The notes: generated from the letters alone by a model not told the origin. A stretch of DNA of 64,000 nucleotides from Candidatus Bathyarchaeia archaeon (GCA_037481775.1 JBBFKZ010000001.1:151150-215149), one strand, 5' to 3'. Shown: positions 14,589 to 30,016, counted from the stretch's first letter. Made by a program: numbers and translations.

Positions 14589-14702
14589 ACGTACTCATAT
14601 CATGGGGGAAATCCATTATGACAAAAAAGCGCTTAGAGTTATTGCAAATGATTTAATAGTTTTTCTGACGCAGATAGAAAAGGCGGAGGTAAGCAGACAC
14701 TC

Positions 14703-15755
14703 ATGGGTAAGGTGGATAAAGATGCTTTTGCTTCTGAATTTTACAGTCGACAGATAATCCTAAAGGAGTTAGGCTGGATCGGGCAGCGCAAACTTGCTAA
14801 GGCAAAAGTCGCCGTTGTAGGCGTAGGCGGTTTAGGCACGGCTTCCTCGCTTTACTTGGCACTTGCCGGTGTTGGACATCTACGTTTGATAGACCAAGAT
14901 ACTGTGGAAATGCCTAATCTGCACCGTCAGATCTTATACAGTATGGACGATCTGCATTACCCTAAGGTGGAAGTGGCTGCTAAACGGTTAATGAAGCTTA
15001 ACCCGCTCTTGAAGGCAGAGCCAATATCGGAGAATGTGAACCCAAGTAATGTTGAAAGGCTTTTGTCTGGCGTGGACCTCGTCGTCGACGGCTTGGATAA
15101 CATGTTTACCCGTTATTTACTCAACCGCGCATGCATCAAACTGGGCATTCCTTATGTTTTCGGCGCAGCCATAGGCATAGAAGGCAACCTCTCAGTTTTC
15201 ATGCCTCCCGAAACTGGCTGTTTAGAATGCTTGTTGCCGAGCCTGTCTGATGCCGACTTGCTGACGTGTGACACGCGCGGTGTTCTAGGCGCCACCCCTG
15301 GAATAATCGGTACCATGCAAGCCATGGAAGCAATAAAAATATTAACGGGCATGGGCTCGCCTCTTAAGGGTAAGCTTCTGATTTGCGACTTTAACGATAT
15401 GTATTTCACCACGGTTGAAACATCAAAAGCTGCTAACTGCCCCGCTTGTCAAGGCACTTTGGAACAGCTGGCGCAGCATGCAAAGCTGGTTTGGCTTTGC
15501 GGTCGGGACACTGTAAATGTTAACCCTGAGAAGCCGTTAAAGCTGAACCTTAACGAAGTTTACGAGAAAGTGAGGCAAAAATTCAACGTTCGCCTGAAGT
15601 CTCATCTCGCCATAATTTTCGATTACGAAAATTTGGAGGTAAGTTTGTTCAACGGTGGGCGCATGCTTATAAAAAATGTTAAAGACGAAAAGGCAGCGCT
15701 GAAAACGTATCAAAAAATCCTTGAAAAACTGGATATAACCCAATACACGTCGTAG
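14703..15755 (+). CDS. ThiF/MoeB/UbaA-family E1-like adenylyltransferase with about 100-aa C-terminal extension
   Basis: 350 aa. 'VAVVGVGGLGTASSLYLALAGVGHLRLIDQDTVEMPNLHRQ' nucleotide-binding motif. Zinc CxxC pairs 'GCLEC' and 'CPAC'. Confidence 0.8.
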   Translation: MGKVDKDAFASEFYSRQIILKELGWIGQRKLAKAKVAVVGVGGLGTASSLYLALAGVGHLRLIDQDTVEMPNLHRQILYSMDDLHYPKVEVAAKRLMKLNPLLKAEPISENVNPSNVERLLSGVDLVVDGLDNMFTRYLLNRACIKLGIPYVFGAAIGIEGNLSVFMPPETGCLECLLPSLSDADLLTCDTRGVLGATPGIIGTMQAMEAIKILTGMGSPLKGKLLICDFNDMYFTTVETSKAANCPACQGTLEQLAQHAKLVWLCGRDTVNVNPEKPLKLNLNEVYEKVRQKFNVRLKSHLAIIFDYENLEVSLFNGGRMLIKNVKDEKAALKTYQKILEKLDITQYTS

Positions 15756-16117: not shown

Positions 16118-17851
16118 TTAGCGAATTTCTTCACGTAGTCTAAGAAGAATTCCGTTGATTGTTGCCTCAGCTTTTTCTTTCCGCCGCTGATAATCCGCAA
16201 TTGCTTTCTTGTACTCTTCCAACGGAAGTTCTCCTCTACTGTGGCGAACCTCCACTGTTCTCAAATTAGCTGAGATTTCAACAAGTTCTGCTTCTGCAAT
16301 ATCCAGCTGCCTAACCGAATCAGCATAAACCCCGCCGGCGCTGCGGAAAACAGCCTTTAACTCAGCTATGTTCTTGTTTAGCGTGTCTATGCGGGTTTCC
16401 AGAGTTTTCCGTTGCACCTTGTATCGGCGCCTTGGAATCTTGCCCTTTTGCGCTCTTTCTTCAAGAAGCTTCAGTTCCAAGACTAACTTGTTTTTCTCTT
16501 CATATGCATCATTGAAGGCTCTTAATTGATCTGGACTGAGAATTACAGAAGCTTTTGGTGTTGCCACTCTTGGCGGTGCCGCAGCTTTGGGTCTTATTTT
16601 CCAGACAGCTAGAATCATGGCTCCAACCGCTGCTAAAGTCCACATCCACATAGTAGGCCTAAAAGACGCCCAAAGTGGATTATAATCATATTTGATCTGC
16701 ACAGTGTCTTCAGAAGGAACAGCGCTCTCTATGTTGCTGACTCCTTCTCTGTTAATTGTCAGCGTTTCTTGAAAGGCTTCTCTGGTTAAACTTGAGGATG
16801 GCTCTATTTCTGAGTACTGTGGCTCTATAAACTTCGCTCCTTCAGGGAGAACAAAGTTAACGGTGACCTTGTCAATGTAGCAATTGAGATTGGGGAATAG
16901 ATCAAAGTTCAAAGTGAAATGCGTTTGCTCAGAAGATACCTGGGGCAAAGTATAATCCGCTGATAGGAATGTTGCTGTGCCGCTGTTTAGAGGCGAGGCT
17001 AACGTAGCAGTGACAAAGGACGCGTTTGCATCATCGGTTTGAGTGCTGACGATCAAGTTTCTGCCGAATTCGTCACTTACAGCAATGTTTGAAGCCGCAG
17101 GCGGTAAGCCTATCTTAATAGAACTAATGCTACTTGTCGAGTTATTTACGATGCGATATTTGTCCGAGACTGTTATGCCGCCGGCGGCGTTTATCGTAAC
17201 TTGGCGAGTTAGCTGTTTCACGTTAATTATTTGAATGCTGCCGGAGCTTAAGGAAAAAGTTGCTGTTGCTGGCGAATAAGTGAATGCAGCTAAATTGTGC
17301 TTAACAAAGCTCGCTGTTTGAACTTCGCCGTCATTTTTTGTTATGGTAATATTTTGGGCATCTTCAGGTAAAACAAGAGTAACCTCACAGCTGGCCGCAT
17401 CCTTCACGAGACTGGGGTAGGCTGGAAAATCCAGCGTAAAATTGTTATAATTTTGAGTGATAAGGCTGTTCGAGAGAATGAATGCTACGGTAAAAACTTG
17501 AGGCGCGCCCTGTGGAAAACTTATTTTTGCACCGTAAAAGCCACTTTGGCCTTCCAACTGCACGCCAAGGCTCATGGGAAAAACATTGTTGTCGTCATAG
17601 GCTATGCCTTTGAGAATGTACGCGCCGTATTTGTATGGGACGCCTATTAGGAAGTCGCCTGTTAATTGTCCAGTTAATCGCACTTTGTCCCTTATAATTA
17701 CGTGGCCAGAGTACAAGACTTCAACTTGGTGATCAATCTGTTGTATGGTGTATGTGGCTTCTTGAGACAAAACAGCTTGCGTGTTAAATGAAGACAATAG
17801 AACCGCAAGTGAAAAAATCATCAGCACTATTGTGGTAGTAGTTCTCTTCAC
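16118..17851 (-). CDS. Type I membrane protein, ribophorin I (OST1)-like architecture
   Basis: 577 aa. Signal peptide 'MKRTTTTIVLMIFSLAVLLSSFNTQA'. About 380-aa extracytoplasmic beta-rich domain containing 'VLPEGAKFIE'. Single TM 'MWMWTLAAVGAMILAVW'. About 150-aa charged coiled-coil cytoplasmic tail. Confidence 0.5.
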   Translation of the reverse strand: MKRTTTTIVLMIFSLAVLLSSFNTQAVLSQEATYTIQQIDHQVEVLYSGHVIIRDKVRLTGQLTGDFLIGVPYKYGAYILKGIAYDDNNVFPMSLGVQLEGQSGFYGAKISFPQGAPQVFTVAFILSNSLITQNYNNFTLDFPAYPSLVKDAASCEVTLVLPEDAQNITITKNDGEVQTASFVKHNLAAFTYSPATATFSLSSGSIQIINVKQLTRQVTINAAGGITVSDKYRIVNNSTSSISSIKIGLPPAASNIAVSDEFGRNLIVSTQTDDANASFVTATLASPLNSGTATFLSADYTLPQVSSEQTHFTLNFDLFPNLNCYIDKVTVNFVLPEGAKFIEPQYSEIEPSSSLTREAFQETLTINREGVSNIESAVPSEDTVQIKYDYNPLWASFRPTMWMWTLAAVGAMILAVWKIRPKAAAPPRVATPKASVILSPDQLRAFNDAYEEKNKLVLELKLLEERAQKGKIPRRRYKVQRKTLETRIDTLNKNIAELKAVFRSAGGVYADSVRQLDIAEAELVEISANLRTVEVRHSRGELPLEEYKKAIADYQRRKEKAEATINGILLRLREEIR

Positions 17852-19968: not shown

Positions 19969-20823
19969 ATGTCCATAATAGAAACAAAAAACCTCACATA
20001 CATTTATCCCGGCGCAACATATCCCTCAATTAGCGATGTGTCAATAAAAGTAGAGAAGGGCGAATTCGTTCTAATTACTGGGCCCAGCGGCTGCGGAAAG
20101 ACAACATTGTGCCGATGTTTTAACGGGCTTATCCCACATTTTTACCAAGGCGAATTAAAAGGCGAAATAACCGTGGCCGGGTTGGATCCCACTAAGCATC
20201 ATACACACGAAATGGCAAAGAGCGTGGGCATGGTTTTTCAAAACCCGGAAAATCAGCTTTTTGCCTTATCCATAGAGAAGGATGTAGCGTTCGGACTGGA
20301 AAATCTAGGTGTACCCAGAGAAGAAATACGGAAAAGGGTAGATTGGGCGCTCATGCAAACGGGCATTTACGACCTACGTGAAAGGTCACCGCATGAAGTT
20401 TCGGGTGGTCAGCAGCAACGCGTTGCTATCGCCGCTGTCCTCGCCATGCAGCCCGAAATAATAGTTTTAGATGAACCGACCTCTTTCCTAGACCCGTTGA
20501 GTGCAGAGAGAATATTTGAAGTGATACATGAACTTAACAAGAAACTTGGAATAACCGTGGTGCTGGTGGAGCATCGGCTTGATTTAACCGCTAAATACGC
20601 CGATCACATAATAATAATGGACGATGGCAAGGTATGCTTCGACGGCGCGCCCAGAGAAATTCTAAGCACCGAAGAAACACGCCTAATCGGTGTAGGTATC
20701 CCGAAAGCCACGCTTCTTTACAATTTGCTTAGGAAGGAAGGCATAAAACTGAGCGATATTACGCCGTTGTCTTCGGAAGAACTGGCAACACTGCTGTTGG
20801 AGGCTCTGAAGCCACATGATTGA
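19969..20823 (+). CDS. ecfA1: ECF transporter ATPase component
   Basis: Walker A 'GPSGCGKTT', signature 'VSGGQQQRV', Walker B 'IIVLDEPTS'. Confidence 0.85.
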   Translation: MSIIETKNLTYIYPGATYPSISDVSIKVEKGEFVLITGPSGCGKTTLCRCFNGLIPHFYQGELKGEITVAGLDPTKHHTHEMAKSVGMVFQNPENQLFALSIEKDVAFGLENLGVPREEIRKRVDWALMQTGIYDLRERSPHEVSGGQQQRVAIAAVLAMQPEIIVLDEPTSFLDPLSAERIFEVIHELNKKLGITVVLVEHRLDLTAKYADHIIIMDDGKVCFDGAPREILSTEETRLIGVGIPKATLLYNLLRKEGIKLSDITPLSSEELATLLLEALKPHD

Positions 20824-21640
20824 AGCTGAAAATGTTCACTTTGTTTACCCCAACGGTGTGGAAGCCTTAAAGGGCGTTTCGCTGGTTATCAGGGAAGGCG
20901 AGTTTGTGGCTATAATGGGCCAGAACGGCGCTGGAAAAACAACACTGATCAAGCATTTTAACGGCTTGCTGAAGCCGACAAAAGGATCAGTGCGGGTAAA
21001 CGGCGTGGAAACTACCAAAACCAGTGTTGCTTCCCTTGCGCGAAACGTTGGTTTTGTGTTTCAAAATCCTGATCATCAGCTTTTCAGCGAAACAGTCGAG
21101 GAAGAAATAGCTTTTGCATTGAAAAACTTTGGATTCGAAGCCGACGTGATAGAAAAGCGCATCAGTTGGGCTTTGAATCTTCTGGGGTTAGAGCAGTACC
21201 GTAAAACTTCACCTTTTCTGCTAAGCGGCGGCGAGCGAAAAAGAGTTGCGTTAGCCTCTGTTCTGGCTTGGGATCCGCAAACGCTGGTTTTAGACGAGCC
21301 AACGATAGGGCAGGACTATCAACAGAAGGAAAAGCTCCGCCAGTTTATTATTCAAATGCAGACACAAGGCAAAACAGTTATTATAGTTACACATGATGTA
21401 GAATTTGTGGCTGAGTGCAACCCGCGAGTAGTGTTGATGAAGGAAGGAAGAATTGTCGCTGATGGCGAAGGTAAAGGAATACTCACCAACCCTGAAGTTT
21501 TAGCTCAGTCATCTGTTGTTCTGCCGCAGATAACTCAAATTTTCATGAAACTGACGCCGCTGGGTCTTTCGAAAGACGTCATAGACCTCTACGAAGCAAA
21601 GGAAATATTACTCAAGTGCTGGAAGGGAGGTAAGAAATGA
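20816..21640 (+). CDS. ecfA2: ECF transporter ATPase component
   Basis: Walker A 'GQNGAGKTT', signature 'LSGGERKRV', Walker B 'LVLDEPT'. Overlaps the upstream ATPase gene by 8 nt. Confidence 0.85.
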   Translation: MIEAENVHFVYPNGVEALKGVSLVIREGEFVAIMGQNGAGKTTLIKHFNGLLKPTKGSVRVNGVETTKTSVASLARNVGFVFQNPDHQLFSETVEEEIAFALKNFGFEADVIEKRISWALNLLGLEQYRKTSPFLLSGGERKRVALASVLAWDPQTLVLDEPTIGQDYQQKEKLRQFIIQMQTQGKTVIIVTHDVEFVAECNPRVVLMKEGRIVADGEGKGILTNPEVLAQSSVVLPQITQIFMKLTPLGLSKDVIDLYEAKEILLKCWKGGKK

Positions 21641-22425
21641 GCTTTTTTGACGGCTTAAAATTCCGCAAAGTCTACTCGCCAATTCACAATTTAGATCCAA
21701 GAATGAAGTTCATATATGTCTGCTCGGTGTTTGTAGCGGCGATTCTCTTCAGCGAAATTATTCCATTATCCATTCTTTTCTTGATGCAAATACCCTTTGT
21801 TCTATTGGCGGGCGTCCCAAAGGAGTGGCTCCGTTCGCTTCGCGGCGCCGTCTTTCTAGCCGCATTCATTTTCCTAATTAATATAGCAACCAGCTTTTTC
21901 ACTTCAGGCTACATGCTGACAGCAGCCAATGTGGAAAATGCTGCTGCCTTGACCCTGCGCTTTATAGTGCTCGTGGAAGCCTTCTCGGTTTTCTTTTTGA
22001 CAACCTCTCCAGACCATCTGGGTTTGGCGTTAGAGCAGAGCCATGTGCCCTACGAGTTCGCTTTTGCCTTCACAACTGCAGTGCGTTTTGTTCCTGTTTT
22101 GGCAGAAGAAGCTCATACGATAATGGATGCGCAAAAGGCGCGAGGGTTGGAGTTGGAGAAAGGTAGTTTCATGAAGAGGATTAGAAACTACATTCCAATT
22201 CTCATCCCGCTAATAGTCAGCGCTATCCGGCGAAGCCTCGAGTTGGCTGAAGCTATGGAGTCACGTGCTTGGGGCGCCGCGAAAAAACGCACAAACTTGT
22301 ACGCGTTAAAGCTGCACAGAGGCGATTTTGCTTTATTGACGATAACACTCGCGGTTTTGGCGATTGCGGTTTATGCTAGGCTTTATGTGCCTGTGCCAAC
22401 GTTAACTCAACTAATTGGAGTTTGA
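21637..22425 (+). CDS. ecfT: ECF transporter transmembrane (T) component, CbiQ family
   Basis: 262 aa and polytopic. 'AEEAHTIMDAQKARG' ARG-type coupling-helix motif. 4-nt overlap with ecfA2. No S component in the window. Confidence 0.8.
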   Translation: MSFFDGLKFRKVYSPIHNLDPRMKFIYVCSVFVAAILFSEIIPLSILFLMQIPFVLLAGVPKEWLRSLRGAVFLAAFIFLINIATSFFTSGYMLTAANVENAAALTLRFIVLVEAFSVFFLTTSPDHLGLALEQSHVPYEFAFAFTTAVRFVPVLAEEAHTIMDAQKARGLELEKGSFMKRIRNYIPILIPLIVSAIRRSLELAEAMESRAWGAAKKRTNLYALKLHRGDFALLTITLAVLAIAVYARLYVPVPTLTQLIGV

Positions 22426-22529
22426 GCACCACTAATTTGGAGATTTTTCCTGGTTAGCTTTTAGCTGTTTTTGGTGAATTCCAGTTCATATTAACTATAC
22501 ATATAGCTTATTAATACTTACGACACACC

Positions 22530-22537
22530 ATATTTTT
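22530..22537 (+). promoter_or_regulatory. TATA-like box upstream of ATG 22563 (pilus locus promoter candidate)
   Basis: ATATTTTT centred about 29 nt upstream of ATG 22563. This spacing is typical of archaeal promoters driving leaderless or short-leader mRNAs. Confidence 0.3.
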
Positions 22538-22704
22538 CAAGAAACATCCGACACTCTAACCCATGGAGGGCAAAACCCACGAAGAAACAACAAGACCCAA
22601 AAACAGTAGACACTCTGGATCAGCCGCAAGCACCAGCAATAATCAGCGGTGCACCTACAAAACCTGCAGTTTTCCAAGAAGTCTACGCCCTCCAAGAGCC
22701 ATAC

Positions 22705-24141
22705 GTGTACGCGGCAATTGTCCGAGAAAAAGAAACCCAAAAGCTGCGCTACGAAGTTATAGAGCCTACTCTCCAACCAAACGAGGAAAAGTATCTTCGT
22801 GAAATAAAGAATTTTCTGATGGATGAAGTAGACGTAAACTTGAAAGAAATTGAAAACAAAGACAAAGCAGAAAACTTTCTAAGACAAAAAATCCGGGGGA
22901 TCATAAAAAAGTACCGCATGAAAATCCCAGCAGAAGCGGTTGACAAACTCACCTATTACATAATAAGAGATTCCTTAGGCTACGGAAAAATTGACCCATT
23001 AATGAAAGATCCTTTAATTGAAGATATCTCTGCAGACGGCACAAACATTCCGCTCTACGTGTGGCATCGCTTCTACGAGTCGCTGCCAACAAACATAATG
23101 TTCACAAACGTCGCTGAACTGGATGCCTTCATAATTCGCCTTGCATATCTAGCTGGCAAAAGCATTTCTCTAGCTACACCAATTCTTGACGCGACTCTTC
23201 CAGAAGGAAGCCGCATACAGCTCACCTACGGCAGCGAGGTCACCCGAAGAGGCTCAACCTTTACTATAAGGCGCTTCAAAGCGGATCCGCTGACAATCTC
23301 GGATCTCATAGCTTTCAACACCCTTTCCTCGGAGATGGCTGCTTACCTGTGGTTCATCATAGAGAACCGAGCTTCAGTCTTGGTGGCAGGCGGGGTAGCC
23401 AGCGGCAAGACCACTCTGCTCAACTGCCTATCCATGTTCATAAAACCTGAAATGAAAATTGTAAGTGTCGAAGACACTCAGGAGCTTAATCTCCCACATG
23501 AAAACTGGATACCCTCCGTAGTGCGCACTGGCTTCAAAGGTGATGACAAGCAAAGCGGCGACATCACCCTCTTCGACTTGCTGAAGGCGGCGGTTCGGCA
23601 GAGGCCTGACTACATTATTGTCGGTGAAGTGCGTGGTGAAGAAGCCTACACGCTGTTCCAAGCCATGGCCACAGGGCACTTGGGCATGTCCACCATTCAT
23701 GCTGAATCAGTCGACGCCGTAATTAAGAGGCTTGAATCCGAGCCGATGAATATTCCTAAGTCGCTTATTGCGATGACTAACGTCATTTTAGTTATGGAAA
23801 GAACCGAAGTTAAAGGGAGACCTGCAAGGCGAGTGAGCGTTGCATCTGAAGTAAAAGGAATTAATGCAGAGACAGATGAGATTCTAACTGAAAATGTGTT
23901 CCGCTGGAGCCCTCAGTTTGACAAGTTCACTTCAGGCGACAGCGTCCTCTTGGAGAAGCACATGAAGAAGCTGGGTTTAACCGAGGAAGATATACAACGT
24001 GAATTTAAAGCTAGGAAGACTGTTCTGGAGTGGATGGTAAAGGAGGGGATCCGACACTACAGTGACGTGGCCAAAGTGATCAGAGAATACTATGCTAACC
24101 CGAACCGTGTCTTCCAAAAGGCGAGAGTGGGGTTCAAATGA
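22705..24141 (+). CDS. Type IV filament secretion ATPase (archaeal FlaI/PilB/TadA family); N-terminus probably out of frame upstream
   Basis: Walker A 'GGVASGKTTLLN', 'DYIIVGEVRGEEA', 'TGHLGMSTIHA'. The intact ORF starts at GTG 22705. The same frame is open back to 22507 and encodes 'AVFQEVYALQEPYV' with no start codon. ATG 22563 lies in another frame. Confidence 0.85.
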   Translation: MYAAIVREKETQKLRYEVIEPTLQPNEEKYLREIKNFLMDEVDVNLKEIENKDKAENFLRQKIRGIIKKYRMKIPAEAVDKLTYYIIRDSLGYGKIDPLMKDPLIEDISADGTNIPLYVWHRFYESLPTNIMFTNVAELDAFIIRLAYLAGKSISLATPILDATLPEGSRIQLTYGSEVTRRGSTFTIRRFKADPLTISDLIAFNTLSSEMAAYLWFIIENRASVLVAGGVASGKTTLLNCLSMFIKPEMKIVSVEDTQELNLPHENWIPSVVRTGFKGDDKQSGDITLFDLLKAAVRQRPDYIIVGEVRGEEAYTLFQAMATGHLGMSTIHAESVDAVIKRLESEPMNIPKSLIAMTNVILVMERTEVKGRPARRVSVASEVKGINAETDEILTENVFRWSPQFDKFTSGDSVLLEKHMKKLGLTEEDIQREFKARKTVLEWMVKEGIRHYSDVAKVIREYYANPNRVFQKARVGFK

Positions 24142-25133
24142 GAAAAAAGCTCATGAAGAAACTCGCTACTGCCAAGGAACATTTAGCAGCGCTTAAAGGG
24201 TTAGATGAAAGTTCAAAACAAACACAAAAATCACTCTTGAAAGAACCTGTTGGGTTTTTGGAAAAGCCGTTATCTATAGCTTATCAGCTAATGGGCAGTA
24301 AAGCTGAGCGGTTTATGCCCCTATTCAAAGATTTAGACCAAACATTGCAAAAAGCAGGCTTAAAAATTAACTTCAAAGCATATATAAGCTTAACAATTTT
24401 ATCGTCGCTATTGATCGCCTTGGCAGTAGCGGCAGTGTTGCCTCTATTGTTATTTTCTATTTGCGCCGTGCCAATAAGCTCAGCGCTCTTATTCGGTTTA
24501 GGCGGCGGTCTACTCGCATGTTTTCTCTCGATTATTGGTTTTTACCTCTATCCAGTTTATCATGCGGATAAGCATAAACGAGAATTGGATGACGAGTTGC
24601 CCTTTACGACTGGCTACATGGCTATCCTGTCAAGTGCAGCTGTTCCTCCTGAAAAAATTTTTTATTCGCTCTCAAACTTGAATGTGCCTTTAGCTGTTTC
24701 CGCAGAAGCCAAAGAAGTTGCAAAAGGCATCAACTTGTTCGGTTTAGACGTGATATCCGCCTTAGAAAGGGTGTCAAAACGCACACCTTCTGAAAAACTG
24801 CGAGGCATCATAGAGGGAATAATATCTACAATACACACGGGCGGCAACTTAAGTGCGTTTCTGAGAGGAAAATTTAAGGTCGCAATGAACCTGAAAAAAG
24901 TGGGACTCAAAAAGTACGCCGACAATTTGGCAATTCTGTCGGAAATTTATGTAGCCTTACTCTTGACTGGCCCGTTGCTTCTAGTCATTATGGTGTCGGT
25001 TATGTCGGTGATGGGCGGCAGCATAGGCTTACTCAGCCCCGACATGCTACTGGGGCTTTTAACTTATTTGGTGATTCCAGTTTGCGCTGTCGTATTCCTC
25101 CTAATCTTGGACTCAACTTCGCCAAAATGGTAG
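24138..25133 (+). CDS. Type IV filament platform protein, N-terminal half (T2SSF domain; FlaJ/TadB-C-like)
   Basis: 331 aa and polytopic. Cytoplasmic T2SSF-like segment 'LPFTTGYMAILSSAAVPPEKIFYSL...GGNLSAFL'. 4-nt overlap with the ATPase gene. Ends at TAG 25131..25133, in frame with the next ORF. Confidence 0.75.
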   Translation: MRKKLMKKLATAKEHLAALKGLDESSKQTQKSLLKEPVGFLEKPLSIAYQLMGSKAERFMPLFKDLDQTLQKAGLKINFKAYISLTILSSLLIALAVAAVLPLLLFSICAVPISSALLFGLGGGLLACFLSIIGFYLYPVYHADKHKRELDDELPFTTGYMAILSSAAVPPEKIFYSLSNLNVPLAVSAEAKEVAKGINLFGLDVISALERVSKRTPSEKLRGIIEGIISTIHTGGNLSAFLRGKFKVAMNLKKVGLKKYADNLAILSEIYVALLLTGPLLLVIMVSVMSVMGGSIGLLSPDMLLGLLTYLVIPVCAVVFLLILDSTSPKW

Positions 25134-25139
25134 ATAAAA

Positions 25140-25955
25140 ATGCCCAAGATAGAGCGTAAAACGAAAAAACTTGCGATCATGATTTCAGCTCTGATAGCTA
25201 CCGCAATAGTCCTTGCTGGCTATTTCACTGTTGGCCTCAGCCCCGCGTTAGATGACTTCGTGTTTTTCGGTTTTCTCATCGTTATTTCGCCTATCGCGCT
25301 CTTGAATTATCTTGATTACAGGTGGAGAAAAGCTGTTGACGAGCGTTTGCCCGACTTATTCCGAAGCATAGTTCAAGCTCAAGAGACAGGCATGACACTT
25401 CACAGCGCTTTAGAAGAAGCAGCAAAAAGAGACTATGGTCCGCTAACTCCTGAACTGAAAAAGATGACTGCACAGATTTCTTGGGGTGCAAGTTTCGAGG
25501 AGGCACTTTCAGCCTTTGGAAAACGCGTGGGCACAGTGCTAACCCAGCGGACGGTACCCTTGATAATTGAAGCTAGCCGTTCAGGAGGGCAAGCAGAGAA
25601 AATTTTCGGGCCTATGGGCAAATTTATCCAGAGCACTCTTCTGCTTGAGAAAGAACGCAGAACGCAGACCCGCCCATACATAGCCATAATCTACGTGGCG
25701 CTTTTCGTGTTTCTATTCACGATAGTGATTCTTTTCAAAACCTTTTTCACAAATGTCGACGGCACAGCCTTGTTTTCCATGTCAACGGTTTCACTTATTA
25801 ATTTGCAGCGAATTTTCATGCATTTAACGATAATTCAAGGATTTTTCGGCGGTCTCGTGGCGGGCAAAATGGGTGAAGGCTCAATAACCGCTGGCTTAAA
25901 GCACAGTCTCATAATGATGCTGCTGGGCTATGTTGCATTGAATTTCTTTTTGTGA
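25140..25955 (+). CDS. Type IV filament platform protein, C-terminal half (T2SSF domain; FlaJ/TadC-like)
   Basis: 271 aa. 'LPDLFRSIVQAQETGMTLHSALEEAA...SWGASFEEALSAF...IIEASRSGG' T2SSF-like domain followed by TM helices. Confidence 0.75.
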   Translation: MPKIERKTKKLAIMISALIATAIVLAGYFTVGLSPALDDFVFFGFLIVISPIALLNYLDYRWRKAVDERLPDLFRSIVQAQETGMTLHSALEEAAKRDYGPLTPELKKMTAQISWGASFEEALSAFGKRVGTVLTQRTVPLIIEASRSGGQAEKIFGPMGKFIQSTLLLEKERRTQTRPYIAIIYVALFVFLFTIVILFKTFFTNVDGTALFSMSTVSLINLQRIFMHLTIIQGFFGGLVAGKMGEGSITAGLKHSLIMMLLGYVALNFFL

Positions 25956-26386
25956 GGATGAAGAAAATGGCTAAGGCAGCTAAACGGTTTTTGCAGGATA
26001 AGCGGGCCATAACACCCGTTCTCAGTCATCTCTTGCTCACAGTCGTGGCAGTGGCGGTTATGGCCATTGCCACTTCAGCCACGTTCGTGATAACCACCAA
26101 TCTCAGGGAGACTATGGGCGAACGCGTCTCAGTCGAAGACGTCTGGTTTAACAGTTCCACTGGTACAGTGAACGTTTACCTACGTAACGTGGGTAAAACT
26201 GCCATCCAAGTCGTGGCCGTTTACGTGAACCACGTAGGCAGCCCATTCAACTCGCCTTTTCGTTTAGAGCTAAATCAGCATGGTTGGCTAAGCGTTAATT
26301 GCACATGGAATCCTGGAGACACTTACTATATAGACGTAGTCACAACTAGGGGGACTCATGTTGCAGGTTATTACAAGGCGCCTTAA
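25952..26386 (+). CDS. Archaeal type IV pilin-like protein (class III signal peptide)
   Basis: Basic leader, then 'KRAITPVLSHLLLTVVAVAVMAIATSATFVI', then a small beta domain ('VNVYLRNVGKTAIQVVAVYVNH'). Start is ambiguous: GTG 25952, ATG 25958, or ATG 25967, which has GAGG 8 nt upstream. Confidence 0.7.
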   Translation: MRMKKMAKAAKRFLQDKRAITPVLSHLLLTVVAVAVMAIATSATFVITTNLRETMGERVSVEDVWFNSSTGTVNVYLRNVGKTAIQVVAVYVNHVGSPFNSPFRLELNQHGWLSVNCTWNPGDTYYIDVVTTRGTHVAGYYKAP

Positions 26387-29036
26387 ACTGTTTAAACATG
26401 GAAAACGCGGCATAAGCACCGTCATAGTCGTCATGCTAAGCCTAGTCCTCATAGTAGTCATAGTTGGCAACGTAGTTCTCTGGAGCTATCAGATGAACCA
26501 GTTAGACATGGAAAGAATGCAGGAAACTCTGAGCCTCATTAATGCAACGCGCATAACCCGTTCCTCATGGAGCATCGCCCAAAGAGAGTACATTACCAGC
26601 GCTGGTAGTAAGCTAAGCGGAACGTTCGTAGATACAACTGCTGCCGATAGTCTCGCTGAAACTTTTAGAGAAGAACTTGAAGGAATTTATAGTTATAATC
26701 CTTCGAGTTATACGCTTGGCGGTGCAACAAGCTATGTATTAGGCGATATTTCAGACCTTGCGTTATCAGATGGAGTATGCATGAATTTCAGAAGTTACAT
26801 GTCCAGTTCTCCCGCTAACGACAAGACTGACGCCTTCGTCGCTTACAGGGATTCTACAACATCACTCAATACACCTAAATGGCGGGTATGGGATGGCGAA
26901 AGCTTAACATGGAACTCGCAGAGCGAGTTGCCAACAGCTAACAGCTCTGTCAGGTGGGTTCGCGTCGCATATTCGCCGCTGGAATCCAGAAGCTATGAAA
27001 AAATTGTCGTCACGCTGTCGGATGACGGCTACTTAGATGCTTATGTATGGAATGGAGCAGCATGGAATGTTACAAGCAACATTGCCTTTCCCGGCACCTC
27101 CGCGAACGCGTATAGATGTTTTGATGTGGCTTACGAAAAAACAAGTGGCAGAGCACTACTGGTTTACTCAAGAGGCACGACAACAAACGAGATAGGCTAC
27201 AGAAGATGGACGCCGGAAACAGGCTGGGGCCCTGAGCAACTTCTGGATTTACCGTACACGTCAGGCATAGTGCGTTGGATCAGTCTAGCGAGTAGCCCTG
27301 GAGCACGTGCAGGAACAAGCGATGATAACGAGATAGCCATGATTTATCTAGACGCGAACAACGATGTTCACGGCTACGTCTGGACTGGTTCAGCATGGAG
27401 CCTTATGGGTGCAACAGCAATCTGGGATGCCACAGCAGCAACGTCAACACGCGAGTGCATAGCCGTTGCCTACGAGCAGACCACAGGCGAAGCCATGTTC
27501 ATCTGGGCGGATTCTGGAAGCAATCGTTTCTACTATAGAACATGGAATGGCGCAACCTTGAGCGCGGCAACTCTTCTAACTATAACAGCCACAGGAGGCG
27601 CTGGTTACTGGGTAACGCTGAAAGCTGATCCCGCATCCGATGACATGCTTTTCCTCGTAATTGATAGTGGAGCAGACCTCAACACGGCTTACTGGAACGG
27701 CAGTACATGGACAGTTCACACAGAACACGACGACACAGTCGACACAAATGCTAGGCGTTGCGCCGATTTCGCTTGGGAGCCCTCAGGCGGAAAAGGCTTA
27801 CTAGTATGGGGAACAACCACTGGACAAATAGCATATAAGACGTTCGTTGCGCCAAACGCATGGGGCACGCAGCAAAACATTGCAATGGGCGGGGCAAGTA
27901 ACATTCATCCTTGGGTGCAGTTGAGAACTAATCCTCGAAATGTCCCTGACGACGTATTGATATTAGGCTTGGTCCTTGAGGGAACCGCTTATGATTTGGG
28001 CGCTATAAGCTGGGACGGGGCAACCTTAACCGTTCTAGGCTCAAGCGTTATCTCAGCAAACACCACCGTAATTACATATGAGTGCTTCGAGTTGGAGTTC
28101 GCTAATTTTGGCGTGCCAACGTTTACGTGCGAAGTGGAGTTTTCAGGAAAATCGGATGTCAAAAACTGGACCCAACTTCTCTGGGCAGCAGCTTTATCCT
28201 TCACAGTACCAGATGTAACAACAACGTTTCAATTATATAATTATAATTTGGGTCAGTATCCAACAAGTGGAAGTGGATACATAACCGACACCATCGGGCA
28301 AACTACGGTTCCAAAAAACCAGACTATACCAGTTTCCTCAACGGATTTTCGAGATGCCAACGGGAACTGGAAAATGAAAATAACTGGAACCAAAATCACC
28401 TATACGCAGTTTGAAATGCACGTTGACTGGATAGAATTTAAACCGACACTGTTTGATGTTTACCGCCTTAATGTCGTCAATAATTTTGCAGTGGATTTAT
28501 CAACTTATCCGCGGGAACACATTCAGGGTTTAGAGTTGCTAATTAAGTATAAAGTCTCCGAAAGCTCGGAAAGATGGTTCTTAAAAGCGTATAACTGGCG
28601 CGCCGCTGCTTTCAGTGATGTAGGCTTCAACGTTACAGCTGGAAGCCAGCCGATACTTGGTGAATGGACTGAGTACGCTATAGCTGTTACAGACGATTGG
28701 GCTGATTACGTAAACGAAGAGGGCCTGGTTCGTGTAGAGCTTTTTGATGAAGGCACAGGTGCAAATCAGACTGTGTTGGAAATCGACTTCTTTGCAGTAA
28801 GAGTCATAATTGATGCCACACGCATAGACGTGAAAAACTCGAGTCCAATAAGCGTTCGCATCGTAGCAGTTTGGGTCATAAACTCTACAATGCATCAGCG
28901 CTACGATGTAGACATGTTGCTTAACGCTGGAGAAGCGGCAACGTATATCCGCGCGGACATAAAAATGCCGCAAGATACTTTTTTGGCAAAGGTTGTTACA
29001 GAAAGGGGCAATGTAGCCGTTTTCTCAAAAGACTAA
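26358..29036 (+). CDS. Giant pilin-headed surface protein: class III signal peptide, 8-repeat beta-propeller-like module, two beta-sandwich-like modules, pilin-like C-terminal domain
   Basis: 892 aa. N-terminus 'KHGKRGISTVIVVMLSLVLIVVIVGNVVLW'. Eight 'Y..W.G..W'-type repeats spaced about 52-56 aa apart (residues about 158-581). The C-terminal 74 aa are paralogous to the small pilin's globular domain. Confidence 0.7.
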   Translation: MLQVITRRLKLFKHGKRGISTVIVVMLSLVLIVVIVGNVVLWSYQMNQLDMERMQETLSLINATRITRSSWSIAQREYITSAGSKLSGTFVDTTAADSLAETFREELEGIYSYNPSSYTLGGATSYVLGDISDLALSDGVCMNFRSYMSSSPANDKTDAFVAYRDSTTSLNTPKWRVWDGESLTWNSQSELPTANSSVRWVRVAYSPLESRSYEKIVVTLSDDGYLDAYVWNGAAWNVTSNIAFPGTSANAYRCFDVAYEKTSGRALLVYSRGTTTNEIGYRRWTPETGWGPEQLLDLPYTSGIVRWISLASSPGARAGTSDDNEIAMIYLDANNDVHGYVWTGSAWSLMGATAIWDATAATSTRECIAVAYEQTTGEAMFIWADSGSNRFYYRTWNGATLSAATLLTITATGGAGYWVTLKADPASDDMLFLVIDSGADLNTAYWNGSTWTVHTEHDDTVDTNARRCADFAWEPSGGKGLLVWGTTTGQIAYKTFVAPNAWGTQQNIAMGGASNIHPWVQLRTNPRNVPDDVLILGLVLEGTAYDLGAISWDGATLTVLGSSVISANTTVITYECFELEFANFGVPTFTCEVEFSGKSDVKNWTQLLWAAALSFTVPDVTTTFQLYNYNLGQYPTSGSGYITDTIGQTTVPKNQTIPVSSTDFRDANGNWKMKITGTKITYTQFEMHVDWIEFKPTLFDVYRLNVVNNFAVDLSTYPREHIQGLELLIKYKVSESSERWFLKAYNWRAAAFSDVGFNVTAGSQPILGEWTEYAIAVTDDWADYVNEEGLVRVELFDEGTGANQTVLEIDFFAVRVIIDATRIDVKNSSPISVRIVAVWVINSTMHQRYDVDMLLNAGEAATYIRADIKMPQDTFLAKVVTERGNVAVFSKD

Positions 29037-30016
29037 TCAGCGCCTAGTTTCTTTTTTAACGAAACTATAGCTTCTTCTTGGTTTTCAGCCTCTATTGAAT
29101 CGATGTTATACAATTCTGCCATTTTCTTCCCGTTTTCGCTGAGTTTTGGAATTGCAATTAAGTAGGCTTTTTCAGGTGAAACATCGAATATCTTGGCAAA
29201 TAATGCGATAACTGGCTGTTCTGACACAACTTTTTCAGTCGTAGTTGCCAAATCAAGCACGATCATTTTCTTTGGCTCGTCGCCTTTGTAGGCAGCTATG
29301 TCGAAGGAATGGTTTGCGCCCGATTTGCCTTTGAGAATCGCGGGGCTTTCAACCGTTAATCCTTTTTCTACGAGAGTTTCTCGTATTGTAGCAATCGCAA
29401 ACCAGTTCAAGAAGGATTCTGCTTTGATATTCTCTGTTATTTTGTACGCGTACACGTCTCTGATGACACATTCTTCAAATGTGGAATTTGTATGGCAGTT
29501 CCTGCAGAAATTGATGGTTACGGGAATGTCAAAGCTTTTACCGCACTCGTTGCACGTGCACCAGATTCCTGCTTTTCTATAATCAACATCAATTTTTCTC
29601 AGCGGTTCACGACATTTCGGGCAGACATATTTGTCTCCTTCAAGAAAGTTCTCCTCTACGTCCATGTAGCCGCATTTTATGTGCTCTATCAACGCGCTTT
29701 TTTGAATATTAATTGATTTACAGAAGGGGCAACAGTAACGAACAGAAATGTTTGCGGAATCACATTTTGGGCAAAAAATGACTTTGTCATAAAGCTTCCT
29801 TTCCAAGATACCTGTAGCGTAAAGCTTGTTTAAGAAAGGCAAGACCTGCGCCTGGTCACCTACAATGTCCTCCACTACTGGGTATTTATAACCGGCTTTT
29901 GGATCGTAAACAGGTTCAAGGCTTTCAAATTTTCCGCTCAGAAATTTGCTTAACAAAACTTGTACATTCCGATCCTTATAGAGTGTAGGCGTCTCTTTTT
30001 TTTCAGTATTTTGCAT
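29033..30016 (-). CDS. Multi-zinc-ribbon protein with C-terminal alpha/beta domain (hypothetical; possible regulator)
   Basis: 327 aa. CxxC pairs at C82/C85, C96/C99, C132/C135, C155/C158 and C171/C174. C-terminal 'GKSGANHSFDIAAY...MIVLDLATT'. Convergent with the giant pilin gene, with a 4-nt overlap. Confidence 0.45.
   Translation of the reverse strand: MQNTEKKETPTLYKDRNVQVLLSKFLSGKFESLEPVYDPKAGYKYPVVEDIVGDQAQVLPFLNKLYATGILERKLYDKVIFCPKCDSANISVRYCCPFCKSINIQKSALIEHIKCGYMDVEENFLEGDKYVCPKCREPLRKIDVDYRKAGIWCTCNECGKSFDIPVTINFCRNCHTNSTFEECVIRDVYAYKITENIKAESFLNWFAIATIRETLVEKGLTVESPAILKGKSGANHSFDIAAYKGDEPKKMIVLDLATTTEKVVSEQPVIALFAKIFDVSPEKAYLIAIPKLSENGKKMAELYNIDSIEAENQEEAIVSLKKKLGAD

Follow-up and report, generated by a model that had tools for sequence, protein, structure and literature searches.

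A conserved type IV pilus operon of Bathyarchaeia with a two-gene platform and a modular, putatively glycan-binding second pilin

A 64,000-nucleotide stretch of the genome of a Candidatus Bathyarchaeia archaeon (GCA_037481775.1, JBBFKZ010000001.1:151150-215149)—in the following called the window, with positions counted from its first letter—contains an intact type IV pilus operon. Five co-directional genes encode a pilus assembly ATPase, two platform proteins, a small pilin of 144 residues and a pilin-headed protein of 892 residues. The gene for a TackOD1 zinc-ribbon protein, which runs convergently to the pilin genes and overlaps the last of them by 4 nucleotides, is part of the locus as well. 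None of these genes bears an internal stop or a frameshift, and the locus belongs to the vertically inherited core of the genome and is not an island. With good confidence, we assign it to the afGspE/PilB3-like kind of archaeal type IV pilus operons, that is, clade 2 of Makarova et al. (2016). An earlier, sequence-only reading of the window had described a non-archaellum type IV filament operon of the same five genes; this description stands, with all five open reading frames (ORFs) present in the ORF list and their domain assignments recovered by Pfam and NCBIfam. The locus comprises the following features.

22490-22533, plus strand: promoter-like element ATTAACTATACATATAGCTTATTAATACTTACGACACACCATAT with a TATA-like TTATTAA, from the conserved upstream alignment
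22565-22569, plus strand: Shine-Dalgarno sequence GGAGG, 9 nucleotides 5' of the putative ACG start
22579-24141, plus strand: pilus assembly ATPase, 520 residues if translated from ACG 22579 (ORF call: 478 residues, GTG 22705-24141)
24138-25133, plus strand: platform 1, homologue of the N-terminal half, TadC/FlaJ-like, with one T2SSF domain, 331 residues
25140-25955, plus strand: platform 2, homologue of the C-terminal half, with one T2SSF domain, 271 residues
25952-26386, plus strand: small pilin, 144 residues, predicted class III cleavage KRA/ITPVLS
26358-29036, plus strand: modular second pilin, 892 residues, with signal peptide and N-terminal helix (residues 1-55), inserted domains and a C-terminal pilin β-domain
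26805-28112, plus strand: β-propeller module of the second pilin (residues ~150-585), lectin-like by Foldseek
28833-29033, plus strand: C-terminal pilin β-domain of the second pilin (residues 826-892), from the orthologue comparison
29033-30016, minus strand: TackOD1 (arCOG06883) zinc-ribbon protein, PF18551, 327 residues, with a C-terminal nuclease-fold domain

The earlier reading let the locus run from 22507 to 30016. Its lower bound is merely the first codon past an in-frame stop, and the coding sequence probably starts at ACG 22579; its upper bound takes in the TackOD1 gene, a conserved part of the locus that had been left undescribed. Of the gene overlaps that it listed, the ATGA at 24138/24141 and the 29 nucleotides at 26358/26386 are real. 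The overlap at 25952/25955 requires a GTG start of the small pilin, for which GTG 25952, ATG 25958 and ATG 25967 are all candidates. In most relatives, the gene begins at the position corresponding to 25967; this is probably the true start here too, and the overlap is then gone.

The class assignment starts from the ATPase, a secretion ATPase of the hexameric type and the VirB11/T2SSE family. It carries a T2SSE domain (PF00437, E = 7e-39) and a PilB3_C domain in Pfam, and its Walker A (GGVASGKT), Walker B (IIVGEVR) and His box motifs are all intact. The best solved relative is GspE of Archaeoglobus fulgidus (afGspE, 2OAP), which aligns near end-to-end with 414 bits—the alignment beginning 5' of GTG 22705—followed by FlaI of Sulfolobus acidocaldarius with 303 bits and CpaF with 173 bits. 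The top NCBIfam model is FlaI (NF058587) with 433 bits, below its cut-off of 550. As controls, the same model gives 668 bits for S. acidocaldarius FlaI, 430 bits for the non-archaellum afGspE—presumably AF0659—and 418 bits for a Nitrosopumilus homologue. Since the score of the window ATPase matches that of afGspE and not that of a true FlaI, it behaves like afGspE, and an archaellum-type ATPase is ruled out. The second NCBIfam match is BasE with 255 bits, and the TadA model TIGR03819 yields 167 bits, its cut-off being 373. In Makarova et al. (2016), all three non-archaellum ATPases of A. fulgidus fall into clade 2, the text places "a few Thaumarchaea" there, and the tree shows the Nitrosopumilus homologues beside clade-2 methanogen sequences. 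One of the tables in that work labels the Nitrosopumilus ATPases "Clade_archaellum", and the label of their sister sequences is Clade_2; for the ATPases of this locus type, the FlaI-model control supports clade 2.

Relatives were collected by a scan of one genome per GTDB species, which yielded 80 loci. Among these, about 57 Bathyarchaeia species genomes share one gene order, with the ATPase followed by platforms 1 and 2, the small pilin, a second pilin that varies and the convergent TackOD1 gene, the exceptions being contig truncations and a few loci without the second pilin. The best relative, L001, is a Bathyarchaeia metagenome-assembled genome (MAG), to which the six genes of the window are 93, 80, 87, 86, 80 and 87% identical, the ATPase being the most similar with 93%. 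Full synteny with L001 begins at energy-coupling factor (ECF) transporter genes, includes the pilus operon and reaches as far as an AP-endonuclease-family gene and polB; close relatives share the synteny between the ECF transporter genes and polB. The ECF energising genes (two ABC ATPases and EcfT; 19969-22425) lie immediately upstream of the operon, and L001-L035, the closer relatives, are the only loci in which this neighbourhood is syntenic; the adjacency probably has no functional meaning. More distant relatives, with 50-55% ATPase identity, occur in Nitrosopumilales and several Asgard MAGs, likewise with two platform genes.

The earlier description of an "unusual pilin complement" is not borne out by this distribution, as the same operon occurs throughout these Bathyarchaeia and its gene set is also found in Nitrosopumilus. 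The entries for Nitrosopumilus AR2/AR1 in the neighbourhood table of Makarova et al. (2016) comprise an arCOG01817 ATPase, two arCOG01808 TadC genes with four transmembrane segments each and about 307 residues, pilins of 175, 246 and 611 residues and the arCOG06883 zinc-ribbon protein. We confirmed this gene set in the Nitrosopumilus locus L065, whose TadC genes encode 307 and 302 residues. Hence, the window carries the gene complement of an already described pilus type.

The small pilin has the class III signal DKRA/ITPVLS (the slash marks the predicted cleavage), and the family motif [DN][KR]R[AG]/[IV][TS]PVLS is kept in 46-48 of 48 relatives. Pfam and NCBIfam return weak matches to Pilin_N, UpsA and BasA (BasA, E = 0.0075), and a profile comparison gives a weak match to FlaG (E = 0.011). 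The sole significant solved relative is the pilus subunit of Pyrobaculum calidifontis, 8FK7, which is matched over its full length both by the family profile (E = 8.9e-13) and by the single sequence (E = 2.8e-5). Because the family profile matches the subunit of a solved pilus, a filament-forming role is supported, and the small pilin, which the earlier reading had put forward as the candidate major subunit, is likely to be just that.

The 892-residue protein bears the class III signal GKRG/ISTVIVV and a GH114_assoc domain (Pfam/NCBIfam). Its AlphaFold2 model (mean pLDDT, the predicted local distance difference test, of 89.2) shows a helix at residues 20-55 followed by all-β domains. Residues 1-66 together with the last 72 residues align to the small-pilin family in hhalign with 98% probability and E = 1.2e-12. 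Direct BLASTP of the two proteins gives only E = 0.1 and was discarded as a proof of homology, which needs the profile comparison. By this comparison, the 892-residue protein is a paralogue of the small pilin with about 750 inserted residues.

The orthologues at the position of the second pilin range from 137 to 891 residues and form a nested series. Forms of 137-141 residues correspond to residues 1-65 plus 826-892 of the window protein, forms of 295-314 residues to residues 1-122 plus 702-892, and forms of about 600 residues to residues 1-150 plus 586-892, to which the window form adds residues ~150-585. The C-terminal β-domain (residues 826-892) is present in all three minimal orthologues of 137-141 residues and in nearly all longer ones; the β-propeller module is missing from the shorter ones. 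Databases hold more than 600 homologues, all unnamed and of 542-1558 residues among those listed, and some of the longer homologues carry Laminin_G_3, DUF2341 or CARDB modules. In Foldseek, the propeller of the window protein finds its best matches in the seven-bladed lectins PHL/PLL of Photorhabdus and BP39L of Burkholderia (E = 2e-10 to 1e-8), with template-modelling scores (TM-scores) to the target of 0.64-0.70. The predicted module thus resembles bacterial seven-bladed fucose lectins, and it might bind glycans. These features—a pilin core recognized by hhalign and a lectin-like propeller—fit a minor or tip pilin that would display an exchangeable glycan-binding adhesin, in line with the tip or minor-pilin adhesin proposed earlier for the giant protein.

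Further observations concern the pilins. In the Bathyarchaeia relative L036, an extra pilin gene of 157 residues (14628-15101; KKAVSPILATLLLIAIAVAAAV…) lies between the second pilin and the TackOD1 gene. The two pilins of the window carry 2 and 11 sequons. On the minus strand at 16118-17851, the window also encodes a 577-residue protein that matches the Ribophorin_I domain PF04597 with 41 bits (cut-off 25). Ribophorin_I is known from eukaryotes as a family of oligosaccharyltransferase subunits, and this gene may bear on pilin N-glycosylation.

A sugar-binding fold on a protein with a class III signal also brings a different device to mind. In Sulfolobus, class III signal peptides are found on sugar-binding proteins as well, which are assembled by the Bas system. 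The window locus might by analogy encode a bindosome-like or pseudopilus device, in which a short membrane-anchored stub, in place of a long adhesive pilus, would show the glycan-binding 892-residue protein on the cell surface for substrate capture. BasE as the second NCBIfam match of the ATPase and the weak BasA match of the small pilin would agree with this, as would the carbohydrate-binding-type fold of the large protein. However, all Bas scores stay far under their NCBIfam cut-offs (BasE 255 against 1000, BasF 37 against 1300, BasA 16.5 against 230), and the Sulfolobales pilus models are not reached either (UpsF 61 against 400, UpsA 16.5 against 130). The only solved protein significantly related to the small pilin, 8FK7, is the subunit of a long filament, the large protein keeps a full pilin core instead of a solute-binding fold, and the ECF transporter genes accompany the operon only in close relatives. 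We therefore regard such a device as unlikely.

A filament-forming pilus could still serve motility. For this purpose, the window is of interest for what it lacks. All ORFs of the window were screened for transmembrane segments, Walker A motifs and class III signals, and Pfam was then run on the candidates. The only ORFs with at least four transmembrane segments are a P-type ATPase, a major facilitator superfamily (MFS) transporter, EcfT and platform 1, and Walker A motifs are confined to EcfA1, EcfA2, the pilus ATPase and an HflX-like GTPase. This screen of the window found neither a KaiC/FlaH-like ATPase nor a second (retraction) ATPase, and class III signals occur on the two pilins only, other pilins and archaellins being absent. 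In the operon, the interval from ecfT to the TackOD1 gene contains no additional ORF, and none able to encode FlaX or FlaCDE. The absence of archaellum accessory genes, a KaiC-like ATPase and PibD/EppA from the window, as reported earlier, is thereby confirmed. A reduced or ancestral archaellum-type motility apparatus, or a pilus for surface (twitching) motility rather than adhesion, might be suggested by FlaI as the top NCBIfam model of the ATPase (433 bits), by the "Clade_archaellum" label in the table entry for a Nitrosopumilus homologue and by the resemblance of the small pilin to the "flagellar-like" P. calidifontis pilin and, weakly, to FlaG. Against this, the FlaI score stands at the level of afGspE, far under both the true FlaI and the cut-off, both text and tree in Makarova et al. 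(2016) group the ATPases of Thaumarchaea with clade 2, and the archaellum-specific and retraction components named above are missing from the window. Hence, a motility role of either kind appears very improbable.

The platform is encoded by two genes. Platform 1 matches the T2SSF domain (PF00482) with E = 1.3e-9 and aligns to positions 6-248 of 555 in the ArlJ model and 43-246 of 484 in the UpsF model; platform 2 matches PF00482 with E = 2.7e-18 and aligns to the C-terminal halves of both models. The two ORFs lie in the same frame and are joined by TGG-TAG-ATA-AAA-ATG, with the TAG at 25131-25133, one of the reading-frame irregularities of the earlier reading. The two-gene platform, though, recurs in about 75 loci across three archaeal groups, where the junction shows TAA, TAG or TGA, the same or a different frame and, in many cases, ATGA or GTGA overlaps. 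As stops and frames vary in this way, the split is an ancient, genuine arrangement of two genes, the TAG lies in frame by chance and is an ordinary stop, and recoding of the TAG by pyrrolysine insertion or read-through is ruled out. The TAG-ATA-AAA at 25131-25139 resembles a fresh nonsense mutation, yet it is a conserved gene boundary. Nor is the arrangement the oddity for which it had been taken, since Makarova et al. (2016) reported two tadC genes in clades 1, 2 and 4B—many clade-2 loci having two—and Denise et al. (2019) described the single-domain platform pairs of Epd-like and Tad systems as the outcome of gene fission. What can be added is that the split seen here is ancient and conserved.

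The start of the ATPase gene is the second apparent irregularity. The frame is open from 22507, but no ATG, GTG or TTG precedes GTG 22705. The peptide upstream of this GTG (…KPAVFQEVYALQEPY) is conserved in all relatives, the substitutions in its codons are biased to the third position (e.g., 5/3/13 and 6/2/14), and residues 31-44 of the solved GspE from A. fulgidus align with this region. No canonical in-frame start exists in L002, L003 and L014, and only a far-upstream TTG in L004 and L027. In the window and in ten relatives (L001-L004, L006, L013, L014, L024, L027), a GGAGG or GGGGG lies 6-11 nucleotides before an in-frame ACG, 42 codons upstream of the GTG; an eleventh relative, L034, repeats the pattern at 40 codons. 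In L007, the sister of L027, an ATG occupies the exact position of the ACG. In the window itself, GGAGG 22565-22569 and ACG 22579-22581 are spaced by 9 nucleotides, and a perfect GGAGG at a distance of 6-7 nucleotides also precedes two other window genes. On this comparative evidence, ACG 22579 is the favored candidate for the start codon, though with less certainty than the class of the operon. Whichever start is used, a pseudogene can be ruled out. We rejected a sequencing error or +1 frameshift as the link between ATG 22563 and the ATPase frame: in the window, this ATG is out of frame and overlaps the Shine-Dalgarno sequence; it falls into frame solely in L001, which has A3 instead of A4 in the A-run, and the unrelated assemblies L002, L003 and L014 have no canonical start either while keeping the ACG at 42 codons. 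The frame irregularity thus recurs in 10 related loci, and ACG initiation would explain it best; a reading as damage is not supported.

In light of the platform split, seen with different stops and frames in about 75 loci, the conserved GGAGG-ACG of the start-less relatives, the third-position bias of the upstream codons and the intact genes and catalytic motifs, a decaying remnant—an ATPase that lost its start, as the missing ATG, GTG and TTG between 22507 and 22705 might imply, and a platform gene broken by a nonsense TAG, as the shared frame across TAG-ATA-AAA might—can practically be dismissed.

Upstream of the ATPase gene, a 44-nucleotide element (22490-22533) is preserved at nearly every base across about 50 Bathyarchaeia loci, whose alignment gives the consensus ATTa...aT.CATAtA.cTTATTAAGaCTt.cgAcAcaaTATat. 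This conservation exceeds the needs of a plain B recognition element (BRE)/TATA box, and the element may act as a promoter. At up to 3 mismatches, the window contains two matches, the second of them with 3 mismatches; a regulon defined by this element was rejected, as the window holds no second convincing copy. Also, an operator is not claimed, as the ATAT-rich flanks could not be shown to form a true inverted repeat.

The TackOD1 protein matches PF18551 with E = 2.5e-42 (145 bits against a cut-off of 32). A tblastn match is found in 62 of the 80 related loci, and the gene adjoins the pilus genes in nearly every locus tabulated; the protein is about 70% identical across Bathyarchaeia and has 1561 homologues. 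The Nitrosopumilus homologues are named "TackOD1 domain-containing metal-binding protein" at NCBI and UniRef. Galperin et al. (2018) named the TackOD1 domain, noted it in Bathyarchaeota and cited it in thaumarchaeal pilus loci. The AlphaFold2 model (pLDDT 85.7) consists of an N-terminal helical region, a cysteine-rich zinc-ribbon and a C-terminal α/β domain. This last domain (residues ~200-327), which lies outside the Pfam match, resembles the PD-(D/E)xK folds of AF1548 (1Y88), Can2 and EndoMS and is Mrr/AF1548-like; sequence searches against solved structures give marginal matches only (E = 0.06-0.09). The fold match supports the domain, but a claim of nuclease activity is barred: as Bathyarchaeia and Nitrosopumilus do not share the catalytic residues typical of the fold, the protein is probably inactive as a nuclease. 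Its role could be that of a regulator, possibly at the 22490-22533 element, or of a cytoplasmic accessory of the motor.

Taken together, these elements might work as follows. A PibD-type prepilin peptidase encoded elsewhere would cut the short charged leaders after KRA and KRG. The ATPase—probably translated from a weak ACG behind a strong ribosome-binding site—would dock on a heterodimeric TadC-like platform, pull the processed pilins out of the membrane and polymerize the small pilin of 125 residues into the filament shaft. The second pilin with the same core of helix and β-domain would be built into the filament, probably at its tip or at scattered sites along it, and display its roughly 750 inserted residues, of which the lectin-like β-propeller might bind glycans on particles or partner cells. 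By swapping the inserted modules, lineages would change the adhesion target of their pilus. The TackOD1 protein would serve as a cytoplasmic regulator or accessory factor. To judge from the genes, the earlier sketch of an adhesion pilus with a peptidase acting in trans, a small-pilin shaft and a giant adhesin therefore appears mostly right.

Several observations weigh against this reading. The screen of the 64-kb window found no A24 prepilin peptidase, although this agrees with the earlier suggestion that the system relies on one encoded elsewhere, and prepilin peptidases are commonly encoded apart from pilus loci according to the literature. The small pilin is 50-86% identical within Bathyarchaeia, which is unusually conserved for a major pilin. 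The likeness of the propeller to lectins is one of fold only, with 10-12% identity. Since five relatives (L009, L039, L046, L048 and L050) are without the second pilin gene, this pilin must be dispensable for assembly. A literature search returned no report of ACG starts in archaea, and to our knowledge initiation at this codon is undocumented there.

Going beyond the assignment to clade 2, one might tentatively see in these loci a distinct, unnamed pilus lineage that is common to Bathyarchaeia and Nitrosopumilales, with partial relatives—ATPase and split platform—in some Asgard archaea. Its marks would be an afGspE-like ATPase, an ancient platform split, an 8FK7-like shaft, a second pilin of 137 to more than 1500 residues whose fold would accept nested, exchangeable modules of lectin or adhesin type, a dedicated TackOD1 regulator with zinc ribbon and nuclease fold and, in one Bathyarchaeia clade, an ACG-started ATPase. 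If true, ACG initiation would throttle pilus assembly.

The locus overturns no current understanding. It represents the usual form, in Bathyarchaeia, of a pilus type that has been catalogued in Thaumarchaeota since 2016 and is, in this sense, largely ordinary. The present analysis adds the link to 8FK7, the nested modular lectin-like pilin, the conserved ACG start candidate and the TackOD1 gene as a member of the locus. Our literature search on pili of Bathyarchaeia found nothing. Bathyarchaeia are among the most abundant archaea of sediments, and their cell-surface biology is essentially uncharted. A class-wide operon that is syntenic with core genes is an obvious candidate for attachment to particles, plant polymers or syntrophic partners. 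The homology of the shaft pilin to 8FK7 links it to a filament of solved structure. The most notable part of the locus is the giant pilin with its predicted lectin-like sugar-binding domain: the second pilins constitute a natural series of nested-domain variants, which could show the exchange of binding specificity on an archaeal pilus. Also, the ACG start candidate and the TackOD1 partner are of interest, and cultured Nitrosopumilus strains carry a homologous locus, among them N. cobalaminigenes with C5F47_03935 as its TackOD1 protein.

Among known systems, the TackOD1 loci of Nitrosopumilus come closest, with an ATPase, two TadC proteins of about 300 residues, TackOD1, a small pilin and a pilin-headed protein of about 600 residues. 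Identity to the window is 50-55% for the ATPase and 24-32% for TackOD1. In Nitrosopumilus, however, the ATPase-TadC-TadC genes and those for TackOD1 and the pilins run divergently, and the pilin genes are more numerous, whereas in Bathyarchaeia five genes form one co-directional unit with a convergent TackOD1 gene. The clade-2 systems of A. fulgidus GspE and Haloferax PilB3-PilC3 share with the window the closest solved ATPase, an equal FlaI-model score and the PilB3_C domain, but they are euryarchaeal, their PilA pilins are often encoded elsewhere and no TackOD1 has been reported for them.

The P. calidifontis pilus is the counterpart on the side of the shaft: its pilin is homologous over the full length, of the same size (144 residues) and likewise has polar residues ending the N-terminal helix. 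The P. calidifontis type is characterized by a ten-strand packing of the filament and an elongated N-terminal helix; in the sequence alignment, the helix region is about 5 residues shorter here. On the contrary, its locus contains a KaiC-family ATPase (Kreutzberger 2023), of which there is none in the window, and the P. calidifontis ATPases among those listed in the table of Makarova et al. (2016) all belong to clade 4. The differing affinities of pilin and motor fit the modular evolution proposed by Makarova et al.

Tad and Epd-like pili (Denise, Abby & Rocha 2019) resemble the window in a platform of two adjacent genes with a single T2SSF domain each. The ATPase of the window is not TadA-like, though, with the TadA model far under its cut-off (167 against 373 bits) and CpaF well behind afGspE (173 against 414 bits). 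In gene order, the Tad/Epd arrangement runs platform-platform-ATPase followed by a TadZ/FlaH-like gene, whereas here the ATPase is followed by the N-terminal half, the C-terminal half and the pilins, the two halves being in the order of a fused FlaJ. Neither a TadZ- nor a FlaH-like gene is present, and the mature pilin of about 125 residues is not of the short Flp type. For the second pilin, a parallel may be drawn to the modular pilins of Streptococcus sanguinis, where PilB reportedly carries a von Willebrand factor A (vWA) module and PilC a lectin module, both displayed by the filament. These bacterial pilins are unrelated in sequence and have their modules appended at the end, whereas the modules of the second pilin described here are nested between the helix and the C-terminal β-domain.

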